Positions 1,640 through 11,866 of a DNA stretch of 24,661 nt are shown piece after piece. Position numbers and translations under genes: made by a program. Position 1 is the stretch's first letter; each line of letters begins with the position of its first letter. The notes under the pieces are model-generated. The model made no database searches and was not told the DNA's origin. It saw only the letters and a list, made by a program, of their open reading frames with translations. Source of the stretch: Halodesulfurarchaeum sp. (lineage in GTDB: Archaea > Halobacteriota > Halobacteria > Halobacteriales > Halobacteriaceae); NCBI GenBank assembly GCA_042216015.1, contig JBDGUI010000037.1, forward strand, positions 1 to 24,661, in the 5' to 3' direction.

Positions 1640-1812
1640 CTTGGGACGAGGGGGAATGAACCCTCCTGCCGATTTCACTGTCGGACATTCCCGGAAATGG
1701 GGATTTGGGCGGTTCCCCAGACCAACTGGACGGCCGAAGATCGGGACGGGTTCAGGTCGGCCCAGCACCGCGACCGACAGACCTACCCCCGACCATCCGC
1801 TATCCGCCTCCG

Positions 1813-4761
1813 ATGAGCGAGGAGACTATCGAGGTCCGCGGGGCGGCCGAACACAACCTCAAGGACCTCGACGTGTCCATTCCGCGGGAGACCCTCACCG
1901 TCGTGACGGGGCTCTCCGGGTCGGGGAAGTCCTCGCTGGCCTTCGATACCATCTACGCCGAGGGCCAGCGACGGTACATCGAATCCCTCTCCGCCTACGC
2001 CCGGAACTTCCTCGGGCAGATGGACAAGCCGCAGGTCGAATCGGTCGAGGGGCTCTCGCCGGCGATCTCGATCGACCAGAAAAACGCCGCGAACAACCCC
2101 CGGTCGACGGTCGGGACCGTCACCGAACTCCACGACTACCTCCGTCTGCTCTATGCCCGGGTCGGCACCCCGCACTGTCCGGAGTGTGGCCGCGAGGTCG
2201 GCGAGCAGAGCCCCCAGCAGATGGTCCGCCGGATCTTCGAGTTCCCCGAGGGCACCCGCGCGAAGATCGCCGCGCCGATCGTCCGGGACCAGAAGGGCGC
2301 CTTCGAGGACCTGTTCGAGGAACTGCTTGGCGAGGGATACGCCCGTTGCGAGGTCGACGGAGACCCGTACGACTTGGCAACTGAGACGCCGGATCTGGAC
2401 GAGAACTACGATCACACGATCGACGTGATCGTGGACCGGGTGACCGTCCGCGAGGACGCCCGGTCGCGAATCACGGACTCCGTCGAGACCGCCCTCGAGG
2501 AAGCCGACGGGATTCTCAAGGTCATCCTTCCGGACCCGCCCGAAGCGGTGGACGTTGGATCGACGGCCCGGTCGACCGGCGATCTGGCAGCCGACGACGC
2601 GGACCCATCGGCCGCCGTCGAGTTCTCCGAGGACCTGGCCTGCACGCACTGCGGCATCGACCTCCCGGAGATCGAGACCCGGTCGTTCTCCTTCAATAGC
2701 CCGCATGGTGCCTGTCCGGAGTGTGAAGGGATCGGGGAGACCAAGGAGGTGAGCGAGGACCTGGTCGTGGTCGATCCCGAAAAGCCCCTCCGGTCGGTCT
2801 TCGAGCCCTGGAGTTACAACCGCTCGTACTATCGCAACCTGCTCGACAACGTGGCCGAGCACTTCGGCGTGAGCGTCGATACCCCCTTCGAGGACCTGAG
2901 CGAGGAGGTCCAGGAGGCGTTCCTCTGGGGGACGAGCGAGGAGGTCCACTTCGAGCAGCAGACGAAAAACGGGGTCCGACACAAACAGGAGCAATTCGAG
3001 GGGGTCATCCCGAACCTCGAGCGTCGCTACGTCGAAACGGACTCCGATCGGGTGCGAAACCACATCGAGGACTACATGTCGGTCACCACCTGCCCGGCGT
3101 GTGAGGGCACGCGGCTGAAGGCCGAGAGCCGCGCAGTGCTCGTCGATGACACCTCCATCACCGAGGTGAACCGGATGAGCGTCAAGGACGCCCGGGAACA
3201 CTTCGAGGGGATGGAGGCGTCCCTCTCGGAGCGGGATCGAACGATCGCCGAGGAGATCCTCAAGGAGATCCGCGCCAGGCTCGGGTTCATGGAGGAGGTC
3301 GGCCTCGATTACCTCACCCTCGACCGGGAGGCCTCGACGCTCTCGGGCGGGGAGAGCCAGCGCATTCGGCTGGCGACCCAGATCGGCTCCGGGCTGGTCG
3401 GCGTGCTCTACGTGCTCGATGAACCCTCCATCGGCCTGCATCAGCGGGACAACGACCGCCTGCTCGACACGCTCGAGGAACTGCGGGATCTCGGCAACAC
3501 GCTCATCGTCGTCGAACACGACGAGGAGACGATGTGGCGAGCGGATTCGATCGTCGACCTGGGCCCCGGGCCGGGCCGGCATGGTGGGGAGGTCGTCGCC
3601 CACGGCGACCCGGAGGAGTTGATGGCCGAACCCGATTCGATCACGGGGGAGTACCTCGCGGGGCGAAAGCAGATCCCGGTTCCCGAAACGCGTCGCGAGC
3701 GGGATGGGGTCCTGATGGTCAGGGGTGCCCGCCAGCACAATCTCGAGGACCTCGACGTCGAGATTCCGCTCGGCGTCTTCACCGCCATCACCGGCGTGTC
3801 GGGATCTGGCAAGTCCACCCTCATGCACGACGTGCTCTACAAGGGGCTCGCACGACGGATGAACGACAACACCTCGGTCGACCCCGGCGAGCACGACGCC
3901 ATCGAGGGCACCGAGGCGATCGAGTCGGTGCGGCTGATCGACCAGTCGCCCATCGGTCGAACCCCGCGATCCAATCCCGCGACGTACACCGGCGTTTTCG
4001 ACTACGTGCGCGAGCGGTTTGCGGAAACCAAACTCGCCAAACAGCGGGGCTACGAGAGGGGTCGGTTCTCGTTCAACGTGAAGGGTGGTCGATGCGAGGC
4101 CTGCGGTGGCCAGGGAACGGTCACGATCGAAATGAACTTCCTCTCGGACGTGCAGGTGCCCTGCGAGGAGTGTGGCGGGGATCGCTACAACGACGAGACC
4201 CTCGATGTGACCCTCCGCGGAAAGACCATCGCGGACGTCCTCGACATGACCGTCGAGGAGGCGCTTTCCTTTTTCGAATCCGACTCCCGGATCAGCCGGC
4301 GGCTCAAACTCCTCTCCGATGTCGGCCTCGATTACATGCGTCTGGGCCAGCCCTCGACGACCCTCTCGGGCGGGGAGGCCCAGCGGGTCAAACTCGCGGA
4401 GGAACTCGGCAAGCGGGACTCGGGAGAGACACTCTATCTCCTCGATGAGCCCACGACTGGGCTGCACAAGGCCGACGAGCGAAAGCTGATCGACGTGCTC
4501 CACCGCCTCGCCGATCGGGGTAACTCGGTCGTGGTCATCGAGCACGAACTCGACCTGGTGAAAAACGCCGACCACGTGATCGACCTCGGGCCCGAGGGCG
4601 GCGAGAACGGCGGCGATCTCGTGGCGACTGGCACCCCCGAGGCGATCGCAACGGTCGAGGTCTCCGCGACGGGACAGTATCTCCGGGACAAGCTTCCGGC
4701 CGTCGACCTCGACGGCCCGCGGGCCGGTGAACGGCCGACGAGCCGGGCACGTGGGGATTGA
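1813..4761 (+). CDS. uvrA: Excinuclease ABC subunit A
   Basis: Two ABC ATPase modules ([47 protein letters not shown]), zinc-finger CxxC pairs and an N-terminal [12 protein letters not shown]. Start placed at ATG 1813. Confidence 0.97.
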
Positions 4762-4855: not shown

Positions 4856-5533
4856 CTAGTCCTCGTTTCGTTGGCCCTTGGCTCGCTCGGCCGCAGCAAG
4901 GTACTCCTCGAGCAATGCCGGAAACTCCCGGCCACGGAGGTACCGGAGGCCGAATTCCTCGGCCCAGTTGATGATCCCGGCGTCCTCGGTGACGACGCCG
5001 GCCTCGAGTTCGCGGGCCAAAACGAGCAGGTCGAAGTCCTCGCGGGAGTCGAGGATCCCCTGTCTGAGCGTCCGTCGGTACTTGTCCCGAAGTTCGGAGA
5101 TCACCTCGTCGGTGGCGGTCTTGTACTCGTGGTCGCCGAGTTCCTCGGCCTCTGTCTCCTGAGCCTCGCGCACCGCACGCTCGGAGACCCGGAGTCCGCG
5201 ATCCACCCGGTCGGACATCTCTTGGACGAACTCGTAGACCACCTCGGCCGGAATCATGACCTCGTAGTGGGCGGGGTTCTTCCGGATGATCCAGGTGTTG
5301 AGCCGTGAGATGAGTTCGGGGCTCAACGAGCGGTCCTCGAGCATCCTCAGGAGTTCCTCCTGGATCGACGGGGGCATGTAACAGGAGATGCCCAATTCCA
5401 GCTTCGCGTTCGCGATGAGGGTGATGAATCGCTCGAGCGCCGCCTCGAGATCCTCGTCGTCCTGACGGATCTCCCCGGTGAGGAAGGCCGAGGTATCGAC
5501 GACGAATCGCTGTTTGAGAGGTTCCTCCGGCAT
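4856..5533 (-). CDS. Protein-only RNase P, HARP (Aq880 homolog; PIN-like 'RNA ligase partner' MJ0950/UPF0278 family)
   Basis: N-terminal RFVVDTS, then CYMPPSI, a [11 protein letters not shown] spike-helix region, [17 protein letters not shown] and VVTED. The expected catalytic aspartates are all present. ATG at 5533. Confidence 0.88.
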
Positions 5534-5652
5534 GGGTGACACTTCGACAGCCGGGGGTAAAGTTCAACCGGCAATTTCGGCGCCTGCCTGGCCACTGGTG
5601 GGGCCCCTCGGGCCGGCGGACCGCTTTTTGCCTCGCCTCCCGTACCCGGGGT
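5534..5652. promoter_or_regulatory. Divergent promoter region shared by HARP and the RNA ligase
   Basis: 119-bp spacer. Minus-strand GAACTTTACC lies ~25-30 nt before the HARP ATG and plus-strand CTTTTTG ~25-30 nt before the ligase ATG, consistent with leaderless transcripts. Confidence 0.5.
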
Positions 5653-6756
5653 ATGGACGAGGCCGCCCTGTTCGACGTCGATACGGGGGATCTCGAGGCG
5701 ATCCGAGAGGCGATGAACACCGAATCGTATCGGGGACGGACCTACCGGTCGCTGAGCCGTCCGGTCCGGGGAGTCGAGCGGGGAACCGTCCGCATTGCAG
5801 ATACCCTCATCAGGGGCTACCCCAGTACCCCACGGGTCCTGGTGCTCGATCCCGGGGTCCCGACGTTCTTCGACGGGTCGATCGCGATCGAGGAGAAACT
5901 CAACGGCTACAACGTTCGGATCGCCCACGTCGGGGAACCGCTCGCGTTCACGCGCGGGGGCCACGTCTGTCCCTACACGACCCGGGTCGCCCGAGCACAA
6001 CTGAACCTCGAGGGGTTTTTCGCCAGTCATCCAGAACACATGATCAATGCGGAATTCATCGGCCCGGAAAACCCGTACACGGCGGCCGACTACGATGTCG
6101 ACTCGATCGAGCCGCGGGTCTTCGACGTTCGACACCGGGAGACGGGTCGTCCGCTCCCCGTCGAGGAGCGGCGGTCGATGGCCGACCGATTCGGATTCCC
6201 CCAGCCCGAACTGTTCGACGTCGTGGACGTCGAATCGGCCGTCGAGGTGATTCGGGACGTGATCGAGGACCTCGATGCCCGTGGCCGGGAGGGCGTGGTC
6301 ATGCAATCACTCGACGGGCGAGACCTCCTCAAGTACACGACGTCTTCCCAGCACCAGTCCGACCTCGAAATGGCCTTTTCGCTGCCTTTCGACTATGGGC
6401 AGGACTTTCTCTTCCCACGACTGGTCCGAGAGGGATTCCAGGCGGTGGAGTTCGAGGAGGACGAAGCGACGGTGCGCGAGCGCGCCCATCGACTCGGTGA
6501 GGCGATCCTCGAACCGATGGTCGAAACGATCCGAACCGTACAGGCGGGCGAGCCCGTCGGGGAGCGACACACCGTCCGGGGCAGTGAGAGCGCGATCGCC
6601 GAACTCCTGGCCCACTTCGACGAACAGGGACTCCGCGTCGAGATCGAGCGGGACCGTCGACTGGGGGACGAACGGGTGGTGGAACTCGTGAAAATCTCGG
6701 ATGCGACCCGGGACAAGATCGAACACTTTCTCGACGGCGGGACGATCGATCGGTGA
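5653..6756 (+). CDS. ATP-dependent RNA ligase, Pab1020/Rnl3 family
   Basis: IRGYP..PR, motif I EEKLNGYNVR, FTRGGHVCPYTT, motif III NAEFIGPENPY, IIIa VFDV, IV GREGVVMQ, V LKYTT, and a C-terminal region with FDYGQDFLFPRLVREGFQ. Confidence 0.92.
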   Translation: MDEAALFDVDTGDLEAIREAMNTESYRGRTYRSLSRPVRGVERGTVRIADTLIRGYPSTPRVLVLDPGVPTFFDGSIAIEEKLNGYNVRIAHVGEPLAFTRGGHVCPYTTRVARAQLNLEGFFASHPEHMINAEFIGPENPYTAADYDVDSIEPRVFDVRHRETGRPLPVEERRSMADRFGFPQPELFDVVDVESAVEVIRDVIEDLDARGREGVVMQSLDGRDLLKYTTSSQHQSDLEMAFSLPFDYGQDFLFPRLVREGFQAVEFEEDEATVRERAHRLGEAILEPMVETIRTVQAGEPVGERHTVRGSESAIAELLAHFDEQGLRVEIERDRRLGDERVVELVKISDATRDKIEHFLDGGTIDR

Positions 6757-6871
6757 GGTTATTCGTATCAGTCATTCTACTGTTTCGATCGGAAAACGGT
6801 GTTAGTCGCTTCAATTCGGTGTTTATTGATTCGTTGCCATCACCTGTAAATCAGATAGGTCAATTGCCCTT

Positions 6872-6902
6872 AGAAAGTGTTAATATGACATACGTCATAC
6901 GT
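6872..6902 (+). promoter_or_regulatory. Archaeal BRE/TATA promoter with an overlapping palindrome, upstream of the candidate ncRNA
   Basis: AGAAA (6872-6876) then TTAATA (6880-6885), 20-25 nt before the 5' strand of the terminal stem. Perfect inverted repeat TATGAC-ATAC-GTCATA at 6884-6899. Confidence 0.65.
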
Positions 6903-6904
6903 TC

Positions 6905-7349
6905 ACATCCCCCTTGGAACGCCACGGGGGCACACTGGACGCCAACGTCCCGGATCGAAAGATCGAGACGGGGCGAGGTAGAGGCCACAACCAAAACGCC
7001 CGTAACAGGGCGGCAAGGTCACAGGTCTCGAAGGAGAACCGCACCGACCCGCCGTCGGGCCGCCATGGCGGTCGGAACCGAAGGCCAAGTACCGGAGCAC
7101 GCGTAAGCGGGCTTCGCGAATATCGACGGCAACGCCGGTGAAAATCCGGCTCACGCCAGCTCACCGGGCACGGCCGGATCCCGGATGAATCCGCTCGCTT
7201 CGCGAACGGAAATCCCGGTGCCAAACCGGGCAACGCCCGAGCTGGCAAGACCCGGTGAGAATCCGGGTAACGCCGTCGCGGGCCGTAAGGGTCGGGGACA
7301 ACGTCTCCCGTCCGGGCCTCAACCGTGCCGTTCCGTTCTGGGGTGTTTT
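6905..7349 (+). ncRNA. Large structured noncoding RNA of unknown family (~445 nt)
   Basis: Ends pair: ACAUCCC 6905-6911 with GGGGUGU 7340-7346, and GGAACG-C-CACGG 6916-6927 with CCGUG-C-CGUUCC 7323-7334. Nested long-range helices 6981-6986/7315-7320, 7044-7050/7289-7295, 7124-7130/7272-7278, 7155-7162/7239-7246 and 7163-7168/7214-7219. GAAA and GUAA tetraloops, two T-loop hairpins, a promoter upstream and a U-tract downstream. No credible ORF. Confidence 0.78.
7346..7349 (+). terminator. Short U-tract immediately after the closing stem (putative archaeal terminator)
   Basis: TTTT directly at the end of the 3' strand of the terminal helix. Confidence 0.4.
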
Positions 7350-7539
7350 CCAGTTCCCGGAGTGTCGGCTCCACCGAGGGGCGTTTCGCCCAATCCACGG
7401 ATCCGTGTTGTCAATTCTCCCGTGTTCGTCCCGCCCTCTTGACACTTCTCCGGTCACTCATTCCATCTCCAATGTTCGGGTGCCAGCCATGCGTGCCATG
7501 ACTCCAATGCTCAATGGGAACCGGCGGGACATCACGGGC

Positions 7540-7677
7540 ATGGTCGAGCCAGGACGGACCGTCGAGGTCCACTACACCGCCCGGATGGTCGATGGGCCGG
7601 ATGCCGGCGAAATCGTGGACACCACGGACGTGGACACCACGGACAGCACGGACGATCGACAACGAGGGAGGGGTTAG
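7540..7677 (+). pseudogene. Truncated FKBP-type (SlyD-like) peptidyl-prolyl isomerase N-terminal fragment
   Basis: MVEPGRTVEVHYTARMVDGPDAGEIVDTTDVD resembles the FKBP N-terminus (VxVHYTG/A...GEVFDTT). Similarity stops at a tandem duplication and the ORF ends after 45 aa. Confidence 0.7.
7614..7643 (+). repeat. 15-bp tandem duplication CGTGGACACCACGGA x2, followed by a degenerate partial copy
   Basis: Read directly at 7614-7628 and 7629-7643, then CAGCACGGA. Confidence 0.85.
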
Positions 7678-7839
7678 CCTGGCCAAGCGAAGTGACGATA
7701 GTGGCTGAACGGCAGGGGCACCGCCTCGCGAATGGGGTTTCCACCGGTGTCAGTTTACGGGCGGTTACATCGAAGAGGGAGAAGACGGAGCGTGCCTCGT
7801 CTCAACCTTTTTCGGCGTCTGGCCCCTCCGGGGTAATGC

Positions 7840-8850
7840 ATGACTCCTGCAGCCGACATCGATCTCGGATTCGTGGACCTCGGCTCGACCGGCATCCAGA
7901 CGAGCGAACTCCAGTTCGGCACCTGGCGGTTCGGGAAGGAAACCGAGGAGGGCAACGTCGAAATCGGTGAGGGGCGGGGGAAGAAGCTCCTCGACGCCTA
8001 TGAGGAGGCCGGCGGCCGATACATCGATACCGCCGACGTCTACGGCGGGGGAACGGCCGAGCGCTGGATCGGCGACTGGCTCGCCGACCGTGAACGCGAG
8101 CGCTATACCATCGCCTCGAAGATCTACTGGCAGATCCGGGAGGGGGATCCGAACAGCCGGGGCACCAACCGGAAGAACCTGCGTCATCGCATCGACGCGT
8201 TGCTCGAGCGTCTCGGGACCAACTACATCGACGTCCTCTACATCCATCGCTGGGACGACGCGACCTCGCCCCGCGAGATGATGAAGACGCTGAATGGCCT
8301 GGTGGAGTCGGGCAAGGTGAACTACCTCGGGGCCTCCACGCTTCGCCCCAACGCCTGGAAGGTCGCCCGGGCAAACGATATCGCTCGCGAACGGGGCTGG
8401 GAGCCCTTCACCGTCCTTCAGCCGCGATACAATCTCGTCGACCGGGAGATCGAGGGCGGTTACCTCGAGATGGCTCGCCACGACGACCTCGCCGTCTGCC
8501 CGTGGAGTCCGCTCGGACAGGGCTTTCTCACCGGGAAGTACAGCCGCGAGGAGGGACTCACTGGCGAGTCTCGGGCCGCCGAATCGAGCCGCTTTGCTGA
8601 GTCCTATCTCACCGAGACGAACTTCGACGTCCACGACGAGCTGAGCGCGATCGCCGAGGAGGTCGGGGCGACGCCGGCCCAGACAGCCCTCGCGTGGCTC
8701 ATGCACCGCGACGGAGTGACTGCCCCGATCGTCGGCGCCCGGACGGTCGAACAGCTCGAAGAGAACCTGGGGGCCGCCGCGATCGAGCTCACCCAGGGCC
8801 AGGTCGACCGACTGACCGAGGCCAAGGAGGGGCCTTACGGGAACCTCTGA
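7840..8850 (+). CDS. Aldo/keto reductase
   Basis: LQFGTWRFG, IDTADVYG (catalytic Asp/Tyr), IASK, YIDVLYIHRWD, QPRYNLVDR, PWSPLGQGFLTGKY, PIVGARTVEQLEEN. Confidence 0.95.
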   Translation: MTPAADIDLGFVDLGSTGIQTSELQFGTWRFGKETEEGNVEIGEGRGKKLLDAYEEAGGRYIDTADVYGGGTAERWIGDWLADRERERYTIASKIYWQIREGDPNSRGTNRKNLRHRIDALLERLGTNYIDVLYIHRWDDATSPREMMKTLNGLVESGKVNYLGASTLRPNAWKVARANDIARERGWEPFTVLQPRYNLVDREIEGGYLEMARHDDLAVCPWSPLGQGFLTGKYSREEGLTGESRAAESSRFAESYLTETNFDVHDELSAIAEEVGATPAQTALAWLMHRDGVTAPIVGARTVEQLEENLGAAAIELTQGQVDRLTEAKEGPYGNL

Positions 8851-10686
8851 TCACGAGGAGAGCGTCCGTTCGGTGACGGGGACCCCTTTGCTCGAGAGGT
8901 GATGCATCTGCTGGAGGGCAAAATCGGCCTCCCTGGAGTTCGCCGTGGCGAGGACCACGACCTCGGCGTTCCCCGAGGGACGCATCAGCCGACCCGCCCG
9001 CTGGGTCCCCTGCCGGCGGGACCCGCCCAATCCGGAGGCGATCACCGCGAGTTCGGCGTCCGGGAGGTCGATCCCCTCGTCCCCGACCCGGGAGACGATC
9101 AGGGTCCGGTGCTCGCCCCGTCTGAACCCCTGGAACAGCCTCGCCCGTTCGGCGTGGGGGGTTTCGCCACTCACGAAGGGCACGTCGAGTTCCCTGGCCA
9201 ATTCTTCGCCCTGGTCGAGGTACTCGACGAAGAGGAGGGTCTTTGCGTCTGGCCGTTCGGCGAGCACGTCTTTTACCGCCTCGATCTTGGCCGGGTTCGT
9301 CGCCGCCAGTTGTCGTTTCTGGTGGTGGCTGGATTCGGCGTATTGCTCGGTTAGCCCCTCGTCTTCCCACGGGACGTACCTGATCTCGACGGCGGGTTGC
9401 TCGACGAACCCGGCGTCGAAGAGCGCGTCCCAGTCGGTCCCGATCGGGGGTCCGATCAGGGTGTAGATGTCACGCTCGCGGTCGTCCTCGCGGAGCGGCG
9501 ACGCGGTCAATCCCAGCCGGTGTTTGCCTTGCAGGTTCGCGGTCGTGCGGGTGACAGGTGAGGGCACTCGATGGGCCTCGTCGTAGACGATGAGTCCCCA
9601 GCGACGGCTGTCGAAGAGCCCCCGGTGTCGCTCCATACTGGCGATCCGGTAGGTGGCGATGGTGACCGGCCGGATCTCCTTCTCGCCGCCGTGGAACTCG
9701 CCGATATGCTCGGACGTGAGGTCGGTGTGCCGGAGGAGTTCCTCACGCCACTGGCCGGCCAGCTCGCGGGTCGGAACCAGCACGAGTGTTTCGGATTCGA
9801 GTGCGGCCACGATCCCGATCGCGGCGACGGTCTTCCCGCTCCCCGCCGGGCCGACCAGGACCCCCGATCCCGCCTCGAGGAAGCGCTCGAGCCAGTCGGC
9901 CTGGTAGTCCCGCAACTCGACGTAGAGCGAGATGTCGAGGTGATCGCCCTCTGCCAGCTCTCGCTCGTCCAGGACGGGATACCCGGCGTCATAGAGGATG
10001 CGCTTGATTTCGGCCTCGCGCCCCTCGACCACCCAGCTCGTGTCGTCGTCGATCGGACCGTGGAGATGCTCGTCGTCGAGTTCCTCGCGGGCGATGTTGC
10101 CCATCAACGAGTCGCTCGCCGCCTCGAGGACCGTGTACCCCTCTTCGTGGGTCCGAAGCGCGAACTGCCGGGCGCGTCGCCACTGGGATTCGATCCACTC
10201 CTCCAGCTTCGGGTTCTCCTCACCGAGCACGTCCCGAACCGTGCCACGAAGGGACTCGAAGGTATCGTGGGGCGCCGCCCAGACGTCCTCGCGGCGGATC
10301 TCGTATCGATAGCCAGCCCGTCCGTTCGTTTCGGCGAGTCGAGCGAACTGGGAGACCTGGGCCCGCGTGAACTGCTTGGGCCGGTCGACGATCACCTCGT
10401 GACTGTCGGGGAACGGGACGACTCGCTCCCGATGGGTCGACTTCTTCCACTGCTCGGCGAAGAACACGACCGGGTCGGTCTCGACGCCGAGCCGAGCCAC
10501 CTGGTCGGCCTCGACCAGCGACTCGAGCATGTCGTCGGCCGCGGACTGCGTACAGTCGAGGGCGTCGGCGATGTCGCTCGCGGTGACGACCGGCCGCTCG
10601 ACGGCCTCGATCGCGTCGCGGAACGCCTCGATGGGCGACTCGTACTCGGGAGGCGGCTGATCGGGGGCGGAATCGGACCGGGTCAC
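8851..10686 (-). CDS. XPB/Rad25-like SF2 (DEAH) helicase with N-terminal HTH-like extension
   Basis: Q motif LRDYQ, Walker A GPAGSGKT, DEAH box, motif III LTAS, VGDEGIDLPD and motif VI QRAGR. GTG start. Confidence 0.88.
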   Translation of the reverse strand: MTRSDSAPDQPPPEYESPIEAFRDAIEAVERPVVTASDIADALDCTQSAADDMLESLVEADQVARLGVETDPVVFFAEQWKKSTHRERVVPFPDSHEVIVDRPKQFTRAQVSQFARLAETNGRAGYRYEIRREDVWAAPHDTFESLRGTVRDVLGEENPKLEEWIESQWRRARQFALRTHEEGYTVLEAASDSLMGNIAREELDDEHLHGPIDDDTSWVVEGREAEIKRILYDAGYPVLDERELAEGDHLDISLYVELRDYQADWLERFLEAGSGVLVGPAGSGKTVAAIGIVAALESETLVLVPTRELAGQWREELLRHTDLTSEHIGEFHGGEKEIRPVTIATYRIASMERHRGLFDSRRWGLIVYDEAHRVPSPVTRTTANLQGKHRLGLTASPLREDDRERDIYTLIGPPIGTDWDALFDAGFVEQPAVEIRYVPWEDEGLTEQYAESSHHQKRQLAATNPAKIEAVKDVLAERPDAKTLLFVEYLDQGEELARELDVPFVSGETPHAERARLFQGFRRGEHRTLIVSRVGDEGIDLPDAELAVIASGLGGSRRQGTQRAGRLMRPSGNAEVVVLATANSREADFALQQMHHLSSKGVPVTERTLSS

Positions 10687-10789
10687 ACACGTTGTAGCGA
10701 CCGAGGGAAGTTAAGCCCCTCACTGCCGGCGGGAGAACCAACGCGGTCGGGCACAAGGGATAACTCGGGCGACCCAGTACGGTGTTTCA

Positions 10790-11866
10790 ATGATCGACGT
10801 CGCCGTGGTCGGGGTCGGGCCACCCGGGGCTCATTTCGCCCGTCGGGCTGCAGCACAGGGCCACGAGGTCGTGGCCCTCGAACGGGGCGCGGTCGGTGAA
10901 CCCCTTGCCTGTTCGGGTCACGTGAGCCGCGATCTCTGGGATTTCCTGCCCGAGGACGCCCCGGAACGGATTCGCCAGAACGAGATTCGCGGGGCCCGAT
11001 TTCATCTCGAGGAGGACCGCGAGCGAACCTACCCGTTCTACCGCGAGGAACCCATCTCGAACGCCGTCGACAGGGTCGGCCTGGACCGCTTACTCGCCGA
11101 CCTCGCGGCCGACGCCGGGGCGGAGGTCCGTCCACACCACACGGTGACGGCGGTCGAGGAGCGGGCGGATAGGGTTTCGCTGACGGTACAGGGACCCGAC
11201 GGCGAGGAGACCATCGAGGCTGCCCTGGTCGTGGGAGCCGACGGACCGACCTCGACGGTCCGCCGGGAACTCGGTCTGCCGGAACCCGATGAGCTCCTCG
11301 TCGGCCTCCTGGCGCATCTTCCGGGGCCGGACCACGGGGACTTCGTCGACGTCTCGCTCACGGTTCCCCGGTTTTTTGGATGGCGGATCCCCCGTGGGGA
11401 GGCTGGCGTCGAGTACGGCCTCGCCGCGCCGCCGGAGTACGACGTGGCGACCCATCTCGACCGGATGCTGGAACGGGACGGGCTTTCGGGTGGCCAGCGC
11501 TTCGGTGGTCACATCCCGATTGGCCCGCCGGATCGCGTGCAATCCGACCGGGCGATCCTCCTCGGAGACGCCGCCGCACAGACCAAGCCCTTTACGGGTG
11601 GGGGAATCCTCTACGGCCTCCGCGCCGCGGAAATCGCGGCCGATACCCTCGACCCCACTGCGCCCGATACGGAGGCCTACGAGCGGGCGTGGCGCGCGGA
11701 ACTCGGCACCGAGATACGGCTCGGAAGGTGGCTTCGCAGGGGCTATTCGGTTCCGGACCCGCTTGCCCGCCTGGGGCTCAGGGCGTTCTCGGGAGAGATC
11801 GGCGTTCACATGGACGAACCGACGTCGCTCTTCTCTCGGGAAGCCATTGGGGCGCTCTTCCGGTGA
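10790..11866 (+). CDS. Geranylgeranyl reductase-family FAD-dependent oxidoreductase
   Basis: Rossmann VAVVGVGPPG, PLACSG, VGADGPTS, LLGDAAAQTKPFTGGGI. Confidence 0.88.
   Translation: MIDVAVVGVGPPGAHFARRAAAQGHEVVALERGAVGEPLACSGHVSRDLWDFLPEDAPERIRQNEIRGARFHLEEDRERTYPFYREEPISNAVDRVGLDRLLADLAADAGAEVRPHHTVTAVEERADRVSLTVQGPDGEETIEAALVVGADGPTSTVRRELGLPEPDELLVGLLAHLPGPDHGDFVDVSLTVPRFFGWRIPRGEAGVEYGLAAPPEYDVATHLDRMLERDGLSGGQRFGGHIPIGPPDRVQSDRAILLGDAAAQTKPFTGGGILYGLRAAEIAADTLDPTAPDTEAYERAWRAELGTEIRLGRWLRRGYSVPDPLARLGLRAFSGEIGVHMDEPTSLFSREAIGALFR

Follow-up and report, generated by a model that had tools for sequence, protein, structure and literature searches.

The window analyzed here is a stretch of 24,661 nucleotides (nt) of Halodesulfurarchaeum sp. 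DNA (assembly GCA_042216015.1, contig JBDGUI010000037.1), and three elements lie next to each other within it: a gene for HARP, the protein-only RNase P homolog also named "RNA ligase partner protein"; a gene for an Rnl3-type ATP-dependent RNA ligase of the Pab1020 family; and a gene for a large structured RNA. An original prediction had joined the three into one candidate processing system in which, for example, HARP might trim the RNA and the ligase circularize it. We compared the RNA and its neighbors across haloarchaeal genomes. The RNA belongs to a family that is widespread in Halobacteria, and the link that the comparison supports is one between the RNA and HARP, not between the RNA and the ligase.

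The HARP gene (4856..5533, minus strand) starts with an ATG at 5533, with an alternative GTG at 5542. The open reading frame (ORF) at 4856-5542 matched PF08745 PIN_5 (E 8e-77, 257.8 bits against a cutoff of 27) and TIGR03875 "RNA ligase partner" (E 1.4e-75, 253.3 bits against a cutoff of 95.3), and seven solved "RNA-free ribonuclease P" chains in the PDB matched the protein over its full length with E values from 3e-37 to 7e-29. Its FVVDTS, DSRED, and TEDAG segments aligned with FVLDTS, DSKED, and SADVG of 7e8j, so that the acidic PIN residues are kept. Identity to the HARP proteins of three related loci (L021, L054, and L073) was 86 to 91%. The ligase gene (5653..6756, plus strand) was identified by profile and structure-sequence matches: PF09414 (5.9e-19), PF18330 Lig_C, the Pab1020 C-terminal domain (2.7e-39), TIGR01209 (1.8e-97), and the Rnl3 structures 5d1o (E 1.8e-79) and Pab1020 2vug (E 5e-44). 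The motif I lysine (K-x-N-G) is kept, with EEKLNGYN aligned to EEKMNGYN of 5d1o, and we presume that it has the role ascribed to it in this family. The two genes are head-to-head, as originally predicted, and the divergent intergenic region (5534..5652) measures exactly 119 nt between the ATGs at 5533 (minus) and 5653 (plus). Divergence is the commonest arrangement published for HARP and Rnl3, and Table S1 of the same paper lists the Halodesulfurarchaeum pair as colocalized and divergent (PMC12153264). The function of archaeal HARP is described as unclear (PMC10941002; PMC12153264). Archaea with HARP retain an RNA-based RNase P.

The ligase gene is followed by an AT-rich spacer (6757..6908), in which the GC content falls to 0.445. 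The spacer carries what appears to be the RNA's own promoter on the plus strand, with an A-run resembling a B recognition element (BRE) at 6874-6876 and a TATA-like TTAATAT at 6880-6886. The RNA gene (6909..7343, plus strand, approximately 435 nt) was delimited by fold, family alignment, covariation, and nhmmer, and encodes a long-form member of the family. On the same strand as the ligase gene, it begins 153 nt 3' of the stop codon of that gene and 29 nt past TTAATAT, in agreement with the original prediction of a structured RNA about 150 nt past the ligase. The segment 6906-7355 folded at -223 kcal/mol on the plus strand (z = -5.8), while the minus strand gave z = -3.0; compensatory changes occur in other genera, and an nhmmer search with the family profile matched 6894-7355 of the window (E 1e-62). 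The ends of the RNA are juxtaposed by base pairing, as had also been proposed: both the fold and the family alignment pair them, in a terminal helix that starts at 6909-6913 and ends at 7340-7343. The 5' strand of the outer terminal helix (6909..6927) pairs with 7323-7343 (CCCC/GGGG, GGAACG/CGUUCC, and CACGG/CCGUG). A T-run at 7346..7349, read from the sequence and matched by a T-rich run elsewhere in the family, is a likely archaeal transcription terminator, and the primary transcript probably extends to it.

Within the RNA, the most conserved core (7081..7120) comprises AAG.C..AGUA.CGGA, a 10-bp hairpin with a 4-nt loop, and UUCG.GAA; the loop is GUAA, a GNRA tetraloop, in the window. The core is followed by a variable expansion domain (7121..7277) and then by a conserved 3' block (7278..7315) with the pattern GG.CGUA.GG.CG.GGA.AACGUCUCCCGUCCGG, which contributes to long-range helices and to the inner terminal helix (7309-7315); helices 3, 7, 8, and 10 of the family alignment involve this block. 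The closest relative, the RNA of the Halodesulfurarchaeum metagenome-assembled genome (MAG) L010, is 95% identical. The original prediction had described "T-loop arms" in this RNA. Three hairpins of the expansion domain (7134-7150, 7214-7230, and 7251-7267) indeed have the dimensions of a tRNA T-arm, each with a 5-bp stem and a 7-nt loop starting with UG. We scored them against what we take to be the T-loop definition, namely, a stem of 5 bp whose closing pair is G-C and a loop of 7 nt with U1 and A5 (UGNRA or UUCRA). The hairpins at 7134-7150 (UGAAAAU) and 7251-7267 (UGAGAAU) conformed strictly, whereas that at 7214-7230 (UGCCAAA) failed at position 4; in L010 the loop of the third hairpin is UUCGAAU. 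The description is apt for the RNA of the window, but short-form RNAs have no T-arm-like hairpins.

The family was recovered by a BLAST search of plasmids, which gave partial homologs in Natrinema, Halorussus, and Halogeometricum, and by a scan of genome contigs with a pattern derived from their alignment (AAG.C..AGUA.CGGA, a 16-nt hairpin top, and UUCG.GAA). The scan returned 94 matches. Ninety-three were haloarchaeal homologs; the other, in Thermodesulfobacteriota, lacks the second conserved block and is a chance match, and it was the only match outside Halobacteria. By nhmmer, the conserved 3' block was present in 100 of 101 pattern-bearing sequences. The family as recovered comprises the window together with 93 haloarchaeal genome loci and 6 plasmid loci. 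The pattern was strict, and the scan was incomplete: the six plasmid copies (in Halorussus lipolyticus, H. caseinilyticus, H. halophilus, and Halogeometricum borinquense and two in Natrinema sp. SYSU A 869) match the pattern exactly, yet are not among the 94 matches. Since known positives were missed, a missing scan match does not mean that the RNA is absent.

A MAFFT alignment of 25 nonredundant short-form members was folded with RNAalifold. The consensus has 11 helices with 63 pairs, 44 of which show compensatory changes. Paired cells amounted to 94.0%, compared with 81.7% after shuffling and 34 to 52% when the 3' partners were slid by 1 to 3 columns; the covariation score was 0.468, compared with 0.226 after shuffling, and none of 500 shuffles attained the observed pairing or covariation value. 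Compensatory changes were found in 9 of the 10 pairs of helix 1, the outer terminal helix, and in helix 11 the CGGA/UUCG base is invariant and the upper pairs covary. In order, the family fold has a long rod formed by the termini, a 5' hairpin domain that varies among members, a GUAACA-loop hairpin, GGAG/CUCC and GCGGCCC/GGGCCGU as long-range helices, a CCAUGG-loop hairpin, and a 10-bp hairpin on the invariant CGGA/UUCG whose 4-nt loop is GNRA in most members. Insertions of tens to about 200 nt are confined to one site: the variable domain sits between the 10-bp core hairpin and the 3' block and contains one small hairpin in short forms and up to about 200 nt in long forms. In its recurrent module, GCAA. 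and.AAAGC enclose a stem of 5 bp that carries a 7-nt UGNRANN loop, and long-form RNAs carry on average 2.3 strict modules.

These data leave us virtually certain that the family is real. It is true that long ORFs overlap the RNA region on both strands (e.g., 6895-7398, minus strand) and that GC-rich DNA folds well of its own accord, so that a chance fold, a protein-coding gene, or a cis-regulatory leader of a neighboring gene has to be considered. However, the overlapping ORFs had no match in Pfam or NCBIfam, 44 of the 63 consensus pairs show compensatory changes, and the insertions at a single site span tens to about 200 nt. In addition, the family has a promoter and terminator of its own, and its flanking genes and their orientations vary highly. 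A reading without an RNA gene is so improbable that we regard it as already refuted.

The transcription signals were compared in 73 members anchored on the inner terminal helix. An AAA....TT.T signal with an AT peak of 0.8 to 0.9 lies at a fixed spot approximately 28 nt before the first paired base, and a T-rich run follows within about 5 to 25 nt of the 3' bulge in 70 of the 73. Judged from these signals, the RNA gene is autonomous, with a predicted BRE/TATA promoter and T-run terminator of its own and almost no 5' leader.

Known RNA classes did not account for the family. Rfam 15 gave no match at the gathering threshold across the whole window, only chance-level matches far below threshold at E values up to 10 on 6600-7900, and no match at E values up to 1 on 16 other family members; RNase P RNA, signal recognition particle (SRP) RNA, and omega RNA were ruled out as identities of the window RNA by these scans. 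ARAGORN found no tRNA in the window, and an odd "tRNA-???" that it called in L070 proved false upon reading and folding. No description of the family was found in full-text literature searches, the supplements of the H. volcanii small-RNA catalogs, which may list it by number, being outside the search.

Several members of the family were unusual in form or copy number. L076 carries two tandem RNA genes (7648-7997 and 8144-8513), the RNA of L045 (9221-10143) has several repeated internal segments, and L052 retains only the 3' half. One MAG has three copies on three contigs (L019, L032, and L035). The two megaplasmids of Natrinema sp. SYSU A 869 (L001 and L002) carry copies that are 90% identical and have about 120 nt of common downstream sequence, and one of these copies lies among IS630 and IS6 transposases. 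These megaplasmid copies belong to a deep branch of 22 rows in the RNA tree, clade I, which also includes Natrialba, Natrinema, Haloterrigena, and Haloplanus. The RNA tree is at odds with taxonomy, for example, at L030 and at L014/L026. Together, the megaplasmid copies and this disagreement suggest that clade I has spread horizontally.

The terminal rod of the RNA has a distinctive construction. An outer helix of at least 10 bp, a central helix of 4 bp, and an inner helix of 7 bp are separated by exactly 3 unpaired nt at each junction. Those that join the outer to the central helix lie on the 3' strand, and those that join the central to the inner helix lie on the 5' strand. This corresponds to the motif called bulge-helix-bulge (BHB). 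In the 25-sequence alignment, the 4-bp central helix (helix 2) is 97% paired, 3 of its 4 pairs covary, and each strand has 3 unpaired columns; the flanking helices h and h' (the outer and inner helices) are both present and both covary. In the window, the 5' half of the motif (6928..6934) comprises the central strand GGGC (6928-6931) and the bulge ACA (6932-6934), and the 3' half (7316..7322) comprises GCCU (7316-7319) and the bulge CAA (7320-7322). The complete motif reads CACGG / GGGC / ACA / CUGGACG ... CGUCCGG / GCCU / CAA / CCGUG, with all pairs formed in the inner (7/7), central (4/4), and outer (5/5) helices. In a strict scan for the 3-4-3 geometry, 75 of 99 RNAs passed, compared with 12 to 28 for eight of nine other geometries; the ninth, 3-3-3, was passed by 81 RNAs, being contained in 3-4-3.

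The conservation of a 3-4-3 BHB in the terminal stem leads to the prediction that EndA excises the body of the RNA and RtcB circularizes it. If each cut falls after the second bulge nucleotide, a rule that we presume to hold here, the excised circle would span 6934..7321 (388 nt) in the window and would range from 213 to 409 nt across the family, with a median of 269 nt. In 10 Haloferax species, the predicted circle is 279 to 281 nt long, and in 7 of these it is 281 nt. A reanalysis of H. volcanii RNase R data lists circRNA_0460 (NC_013967.1:2,694,003-2,694,283, plus strand), an intergenic circle of 281 nt with 171 junction reads, in Table S3 only and not in the text (PMC12558985); that study is the only one in which this circle was found. 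The table lists five intergenic circles on the H. volcanii chromosome (49, 76, 97, 109, and 281 nt), and the SRP RNA circles lie elsewhere (PMC12558985). We infer that circRNA_0460 is the family RNA because it has the expected length, lies between genes, and comes from a genus in which 11 other species conserve the RNA; if so, an unannotated 281-nt circle in a published table is explained. The RNA is probably circular, and we judge circularization that depends on the BHB to be somewhat more likely than not.

To determine whether the RNA is associated with HARP or the ligase, tblastn with both window proteins was run on 87 RNA loci with their fetched flanks (up to 10 kb). HARP lay within 2.3 kb of the RNA in 20 of the 87 loci, and in 19 of the 71 loci that have at least 2.5 kb on both sides; the ligase was found at 7 of the 87. 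By our own estimate, approximately 0.1 locus would be expected by chance for a single-copy gene (4.6 kb per genome of about 3.5 Mb, times 87). An unbiased clustering of neighboring ORFs also ranked HARP first, with a median distance of 292 nt, and gave no second recurrent protein family other than lineage-specific synteny and HalOD1 genes. The RNA gene is therefore clustered nonrandomly with the HARP gene. Three gene orders were seen: HARP(-) ligase(+) RNA(+) in 4 loci, the window, L021, L054, and L073, all Halodesulfurarchaeum-like; divergent HARP(-) RNA(+) in 11 loci of Halorussus, Haladaptatus, Halogeometricum pallidum, and one MAG; and convergent RNA(+) HARP(-) in 5 loci, those of Halopenitus, a Natrialbaceae strain, Natronomonas, Salinirubellus, and a Haloarculaceae MAG, 3 of which also carry the ligase. 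Relative to the RNA, HARP was on the opposite strand at all 20 of its 20 loci, whereas the ligase shared the strand of the RNA at all 7 of its 7. The 20 HARP-adjacent copies are spread over about 7 subclades of the RNA tree, and the adjacency label changes at least 8 times among 85 flanked rows, compared with 17 to 20 times when labels are shuffled.

At the genome level, RNA-bearing named strains were compared with the HARP-positive strains in Table S1 of PMC12153264. Thirty such strains appear in the table, and 24 of these carry the RNA away from HARP. HARP and the RNA occur without a ligase in Haloferax, Halorussus halophilus, Haladaptatus salinisoli, Halogeometricum pallidum, and Halorubellus salinus, and H. 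volcanii DS2 is listed as HARP positive and Rnl3 negative. Halorubrum, Halobacterium, and Haloquadratum have neither a row in that table nor an RNA match. Twelve RNA-bearing names that were looked up are absent from it; 3 of them have HARP beside the RNA by tblastn, so that "not listed" differs from HARP negative. RNA-bearing genomes are thus mostly HARP positive, with or without the ligase. The expectation that the RNA would be codistributed with HARP and Rnl3 was therefore borne out in part: the RNA recurs beside HARP in about 7 lineages and 3 orders, but the ligase accompanies few of its loci.

This distribution bears directly on the processing route that had been proposed, in which HARP would remove a 5' leader to leave a 5'-phosphate, and Rnl3 would join this to the 3'-hydroxyl at the terminal helix. 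In its favor, the three genes are adjacent in the window and in L021, L054, and L073, and in another order in L014, L026, and L031; the RNA ends are paired; and the ends that HARP produces are chemically compatible with Rnl3 substrates, which is established knowledge (PMC12153264). Against it, the ligase is rare at the RNA loci and several genomes with the RNA and HARP have no ligase at all. The predicted transcription start coincides with the first paired base, and a promoter about 28 to 29 nt upstream of that base leaves little or no leader to remove. The BHB, moreover, points to EndA and RtcB: the 281-nt circle of H. volcanii fits cuts in the bulges, whereas ligation of the transcript termini would, as estimated from the helix lengths, give a circle about 40 to 50 nt longer, and H. 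volcanii lacks Rnl3. The BHB of the family and a circle of the size that it predicts in this ligase-free organism argue for end maturation by EndA/RtcB rather than by HARP/Rnl3. The idea of a general substrate shared by HARP and Rnl3 likewise did not survive, as the RNA matches are confined to Halobacteria, the one chance match aside, and HARP-Rnl3 ranges far wider, to methanogens, Thermococcales, and bacteria (PMC12153264). We consider trimming by HARP and end joining by Rnl3 in a dedicated system quite improbable.

We instead favor a reading in which a circular RNA made by EndA and RtcB acts with HARP, and Rnl3 is an accessory; its rough probability is 0.5. Transcription would start at, or a few nt from, the first paired base, EndA would cut both bulges, and RtcB would close the excised body into a stable circle, in a manner like the handling of precursor rRNAs and tRNA introns. 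The outer helix would then be a processing stem only, which would account for its being both the most variable helix and the one with the strongest covariation. Because EndA and RtcB would make the ends of the RNA, HARP and Rnl3 would not be needed for end formation. The circle may subsequently work with HARP, either as a bound partner or regulator that shows tRNA-like T-arms or other handles, such as the conserved core, to the HARP oligomer or as a substrate that HARP cuts internally. Rnl3, where present, would be an accessory and not an obligatory third part. HARP ranges far beyond the RNA and so does not need it, and the RNA is found almost only where HARP occurs; an asymmetry of this kind would be expected of a HARP client or regulator more than of a required cofactor. 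A functional tie between the RNA and HARP seems to us somewhat better than an even proposition.

Several points weigh against this reading. That the strand arrangement of the rod is a canonical BHB is our assumption, based on the geometry of the tRNA anticodon-intron helix, as is the rule for the cutting position, and the identification of circRNA_0460 is indirect. Schwarz (2020) reported 7 BHB-flanked circular RNAs in H. volcanii, with filters that required all three replicates and a fit to a covariance model, and the family RNA is not among them. Deletion of HARP in H. volcanii gave no growth phenotype (PMC12153264). Neither HARP nor the ligase lay within the fetched flanks of 67 of the 87 RNA copies, and clade I is never HARP adjacent. 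Among seven plasmid-borne HARP loci, the 3 of Halorussus have the RNA and the other 4 have none within 5 kb; these last three observations also contradict the earlier notion of an RNA dedicated to the HARP-ligase pair. In Halogeometricum borinquense, HARP and the ligase are on NC_014735.1, and the RNA is on pHBOR03. Natrinema limicola and N. hispanicum have the RNA and no entry in the HARP-positive table; the former, whose project's other genomes are listed, is probably without HARP. Conversely, classical Haloarcula, Halobellus, and Halobaculum are HARP and ligase positive and gave no match, which is weak evidence because the scan was strict and incomplete. A search with the family profile (nhmmer --max) also found nothing in L102 to L105. 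A different RNA 3' of the ligase at loci without the family RNA was considered, but the gaps of L104 and L105 folded unconvincingly (z = -1.3 and -2.1).

The same observations would suit an independent housekeeping or accessory RNA, possibly circular, which has no tie to HARP and whose adjacency reflects decaying ancestral synteny or a shared regulon. Most copies lie elsewhere in the genome than HARP, a whole clade is never next to it, some RNA-bearing genomes are not in the HARP-positive table, and in Haloferacaceae the RNA keeps its synteny with tRNA-Leu(CAA) regardless of HARP. However, three gene orders in about seven lineages, always within 2.3 kb and always on opposite strands, are a poor fit to the decay of one ancestral arrangement, and no other gene family recurs beside the RNA across families. 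In addition, all 30 of the 30 verifiable RNA-bearing strains are HARP positive in a class in which HARP is patchy (PMC12153264). An RNA independent of HARP is possible but, in our judgment, doubtful.

A bolder version of the favored reading would make the RNA the physiological partner of haloarchaeal HARP: the HARP oligomer would read the tRNA-like T-arms and conserved core of the BHB-excised circle, HARP would open the circle, leaving a 5'-phosphate and a 3'-hydroxyl, and Rnl3, where present, would reseal it. If true, HARP and Rnl3 would work in opposition, one cutting and the other rejoining a single dedicated RNA that serves as a switch or scaffold, and both the co-occurrence of the enzymes and the dispensability of archaeal HARP for tRNA maturation would be explained. 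We hold this version to be unlikely.

Other genes near the RNA were recorded as well. tRNA-Leu(CAA) lies approximately 0.15 to 1.7 kb from the RNA in 15 of 60 scanned loci, all of them Haloferacaceae (L009, L015, L020, L022, L027, L028, L042, L046, L057, L068, L072, L075, L080, L085, and L086). Halogeometricum pallidum has the order tRNA-Leu, HARP, RNA, and Haloferax has the same order minus HARP, a pattern that loss of HARP from an older cluster would produce. Beside the RNA or HARP, small "HalOD1 output domain" genes are found repeatedly, for example, at L001:6784-7089, L004:6401-6706, L006:6245-6550, and L102:5914-6716, and they make up neighbor cluster 6, seen at 8 loci; in Salinigranum marinum, two HalOD1 genes follow HARP where Halorussus has the RNA. 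In Haladaptatus and Halomicrococcus, the RNA is directly followed by a gene for a 126-amino-acid (aa) protein and then by a second gene (L029:10194-10574 and 10575-11381; also L088, L097, and L099); from their motifs, we take the first to carry the aIF5A hypusine-site motif and the second to be agmatinase-like. In the window itself, the HARP-ligase-RNA cluster is flanked by uvrA (1705-4761, plus strand) and an ERCC3/XPB-like helicase gene (8851-10686, minus strand), a nucleic-acid-repair neighborhood. The other genes of the window are ordinary housekeeping genes (NifU-like, EamA, UvrA, aldo-keto reductase, XPB-like helicase, PAS histidine kinase, glutamate dehydrogenase, and NUDIX). The interval from the RNA to the aldo-keto reductase gene contains a short, acidic 62-aa ORF (7489-7677, plus strand), possibly a fragment of a gene, whose N terminus resembles an FKBP-type isomerase; the longer ORF around it had no match in Pfam or NCBIfam.

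A conserved, complex RNA that clusters with HARP is a concrete candidate for a partner or substrate of this enzyme, and the new family joins a short list of large archaeal RNAs of unknown function. Resources for its study already exist in H. volcanii: a HARP deletion strain, an EndA knockdown strain, and circular-RNA sequencing data. Searches of Rfam and the literature found neither the RNA family, nor a free-standing gene for a BHB-flanked large RNA, nor a genomic link between such an RNA and HARP. The present RNA appears to be the first large structured RNA with a free-standing gene that is predicted to circularize via the rRNA/tRNA-intron pathway.

Among the closest known systems is the HARP-Rnl3 pair itself, of which the window HARP and ligase are a published divergent example (Seshadri and Gopalan, mBio 2025, PMC12153264). 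The proposals made there for the pair are maturation of C/D box small RNAs, adenylated leaders, or a toxin-antitoxin pair, and a large RNA next to the pair is absent from the available part of that paper; in our loci, what recurs as a third element is a structured RNA, and its tie is to HARP rather than to the ligase. A type III (ToxIN-like) toxin-antitoxin system, in which a tandem-repeat RNA would lie just upstream of the nuclease gene and in the same direction, was rejected: the RNA is on the strand opposite to HARP in 20 of 20 loci and, by the RNAalifold alignment, has one complex fold and no repeat array. BHB-dependent circles are known from rRNA precursors, tRNA introns, and one 5' untranslated region (PMC7714728), and archaeal pre-rRNAs and tRNA introns, processed by EndA and RtcB, share with our RNA the paired transcript ends, the two 3-nt bulges 4 bp apart, and a circle, here predicted. 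In contrast to those precursors as described there, the excised piece would be the body of a free-standing, conserved RNA gene, and cleavage by EndA is a prediction.

Circularly permuted tRNA genes offer another parallel. Their transcripts are circularized through a BHB, after which RNase P and tRNase Z cleave them. Such a sequence, with BHB circularization first and an RNase P-type enzyme second, would be one way in which HARP could act on the circle; unlike in permuted tRNAs, no tRNA was detected in the window and no acceptor-stem-like site was found across the junction. In the bacterial rsr (Ro60)-Y RNA-rtcB RNA repair operons, Y RNAs have a tRNA-like domain. Like these, the present locus encodes a T-arm-bearing noncoding RNA beside an RNA-binding or -processing protein and an RNA ligase; unlike them, it is archaeal, the proteins are the PIN-domain HARP and Rnl3, the RNA is unrelated, and there is no shared operon, since the RNA is always on the strand opposite to HARP. 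RNase P also processes some RNAs other than tRNA whose ends pair, the precursor of bacterial 4.5S RNA being an example. The pairing of an RNase P-type enzyme with a long, rod-like RNA whose 5' and 3' ends are paired is similar here, whereas the haloarchaeal RNA has almost no leader and its outer helix is probably discarded at the BHB. Finally, OLE, GOLLD, ROOL, and raiA are large structured RNAs of unknown function, and the new family resembles them in its length of several hundred nt, its many covarying helices, its GNRA loops, its expansion domain, and its narrow taxonomic range. It has no sequence or model similarity to them in the Rfam scans and differs from them in being archaeal, BHB flanked, and linked to HARP.

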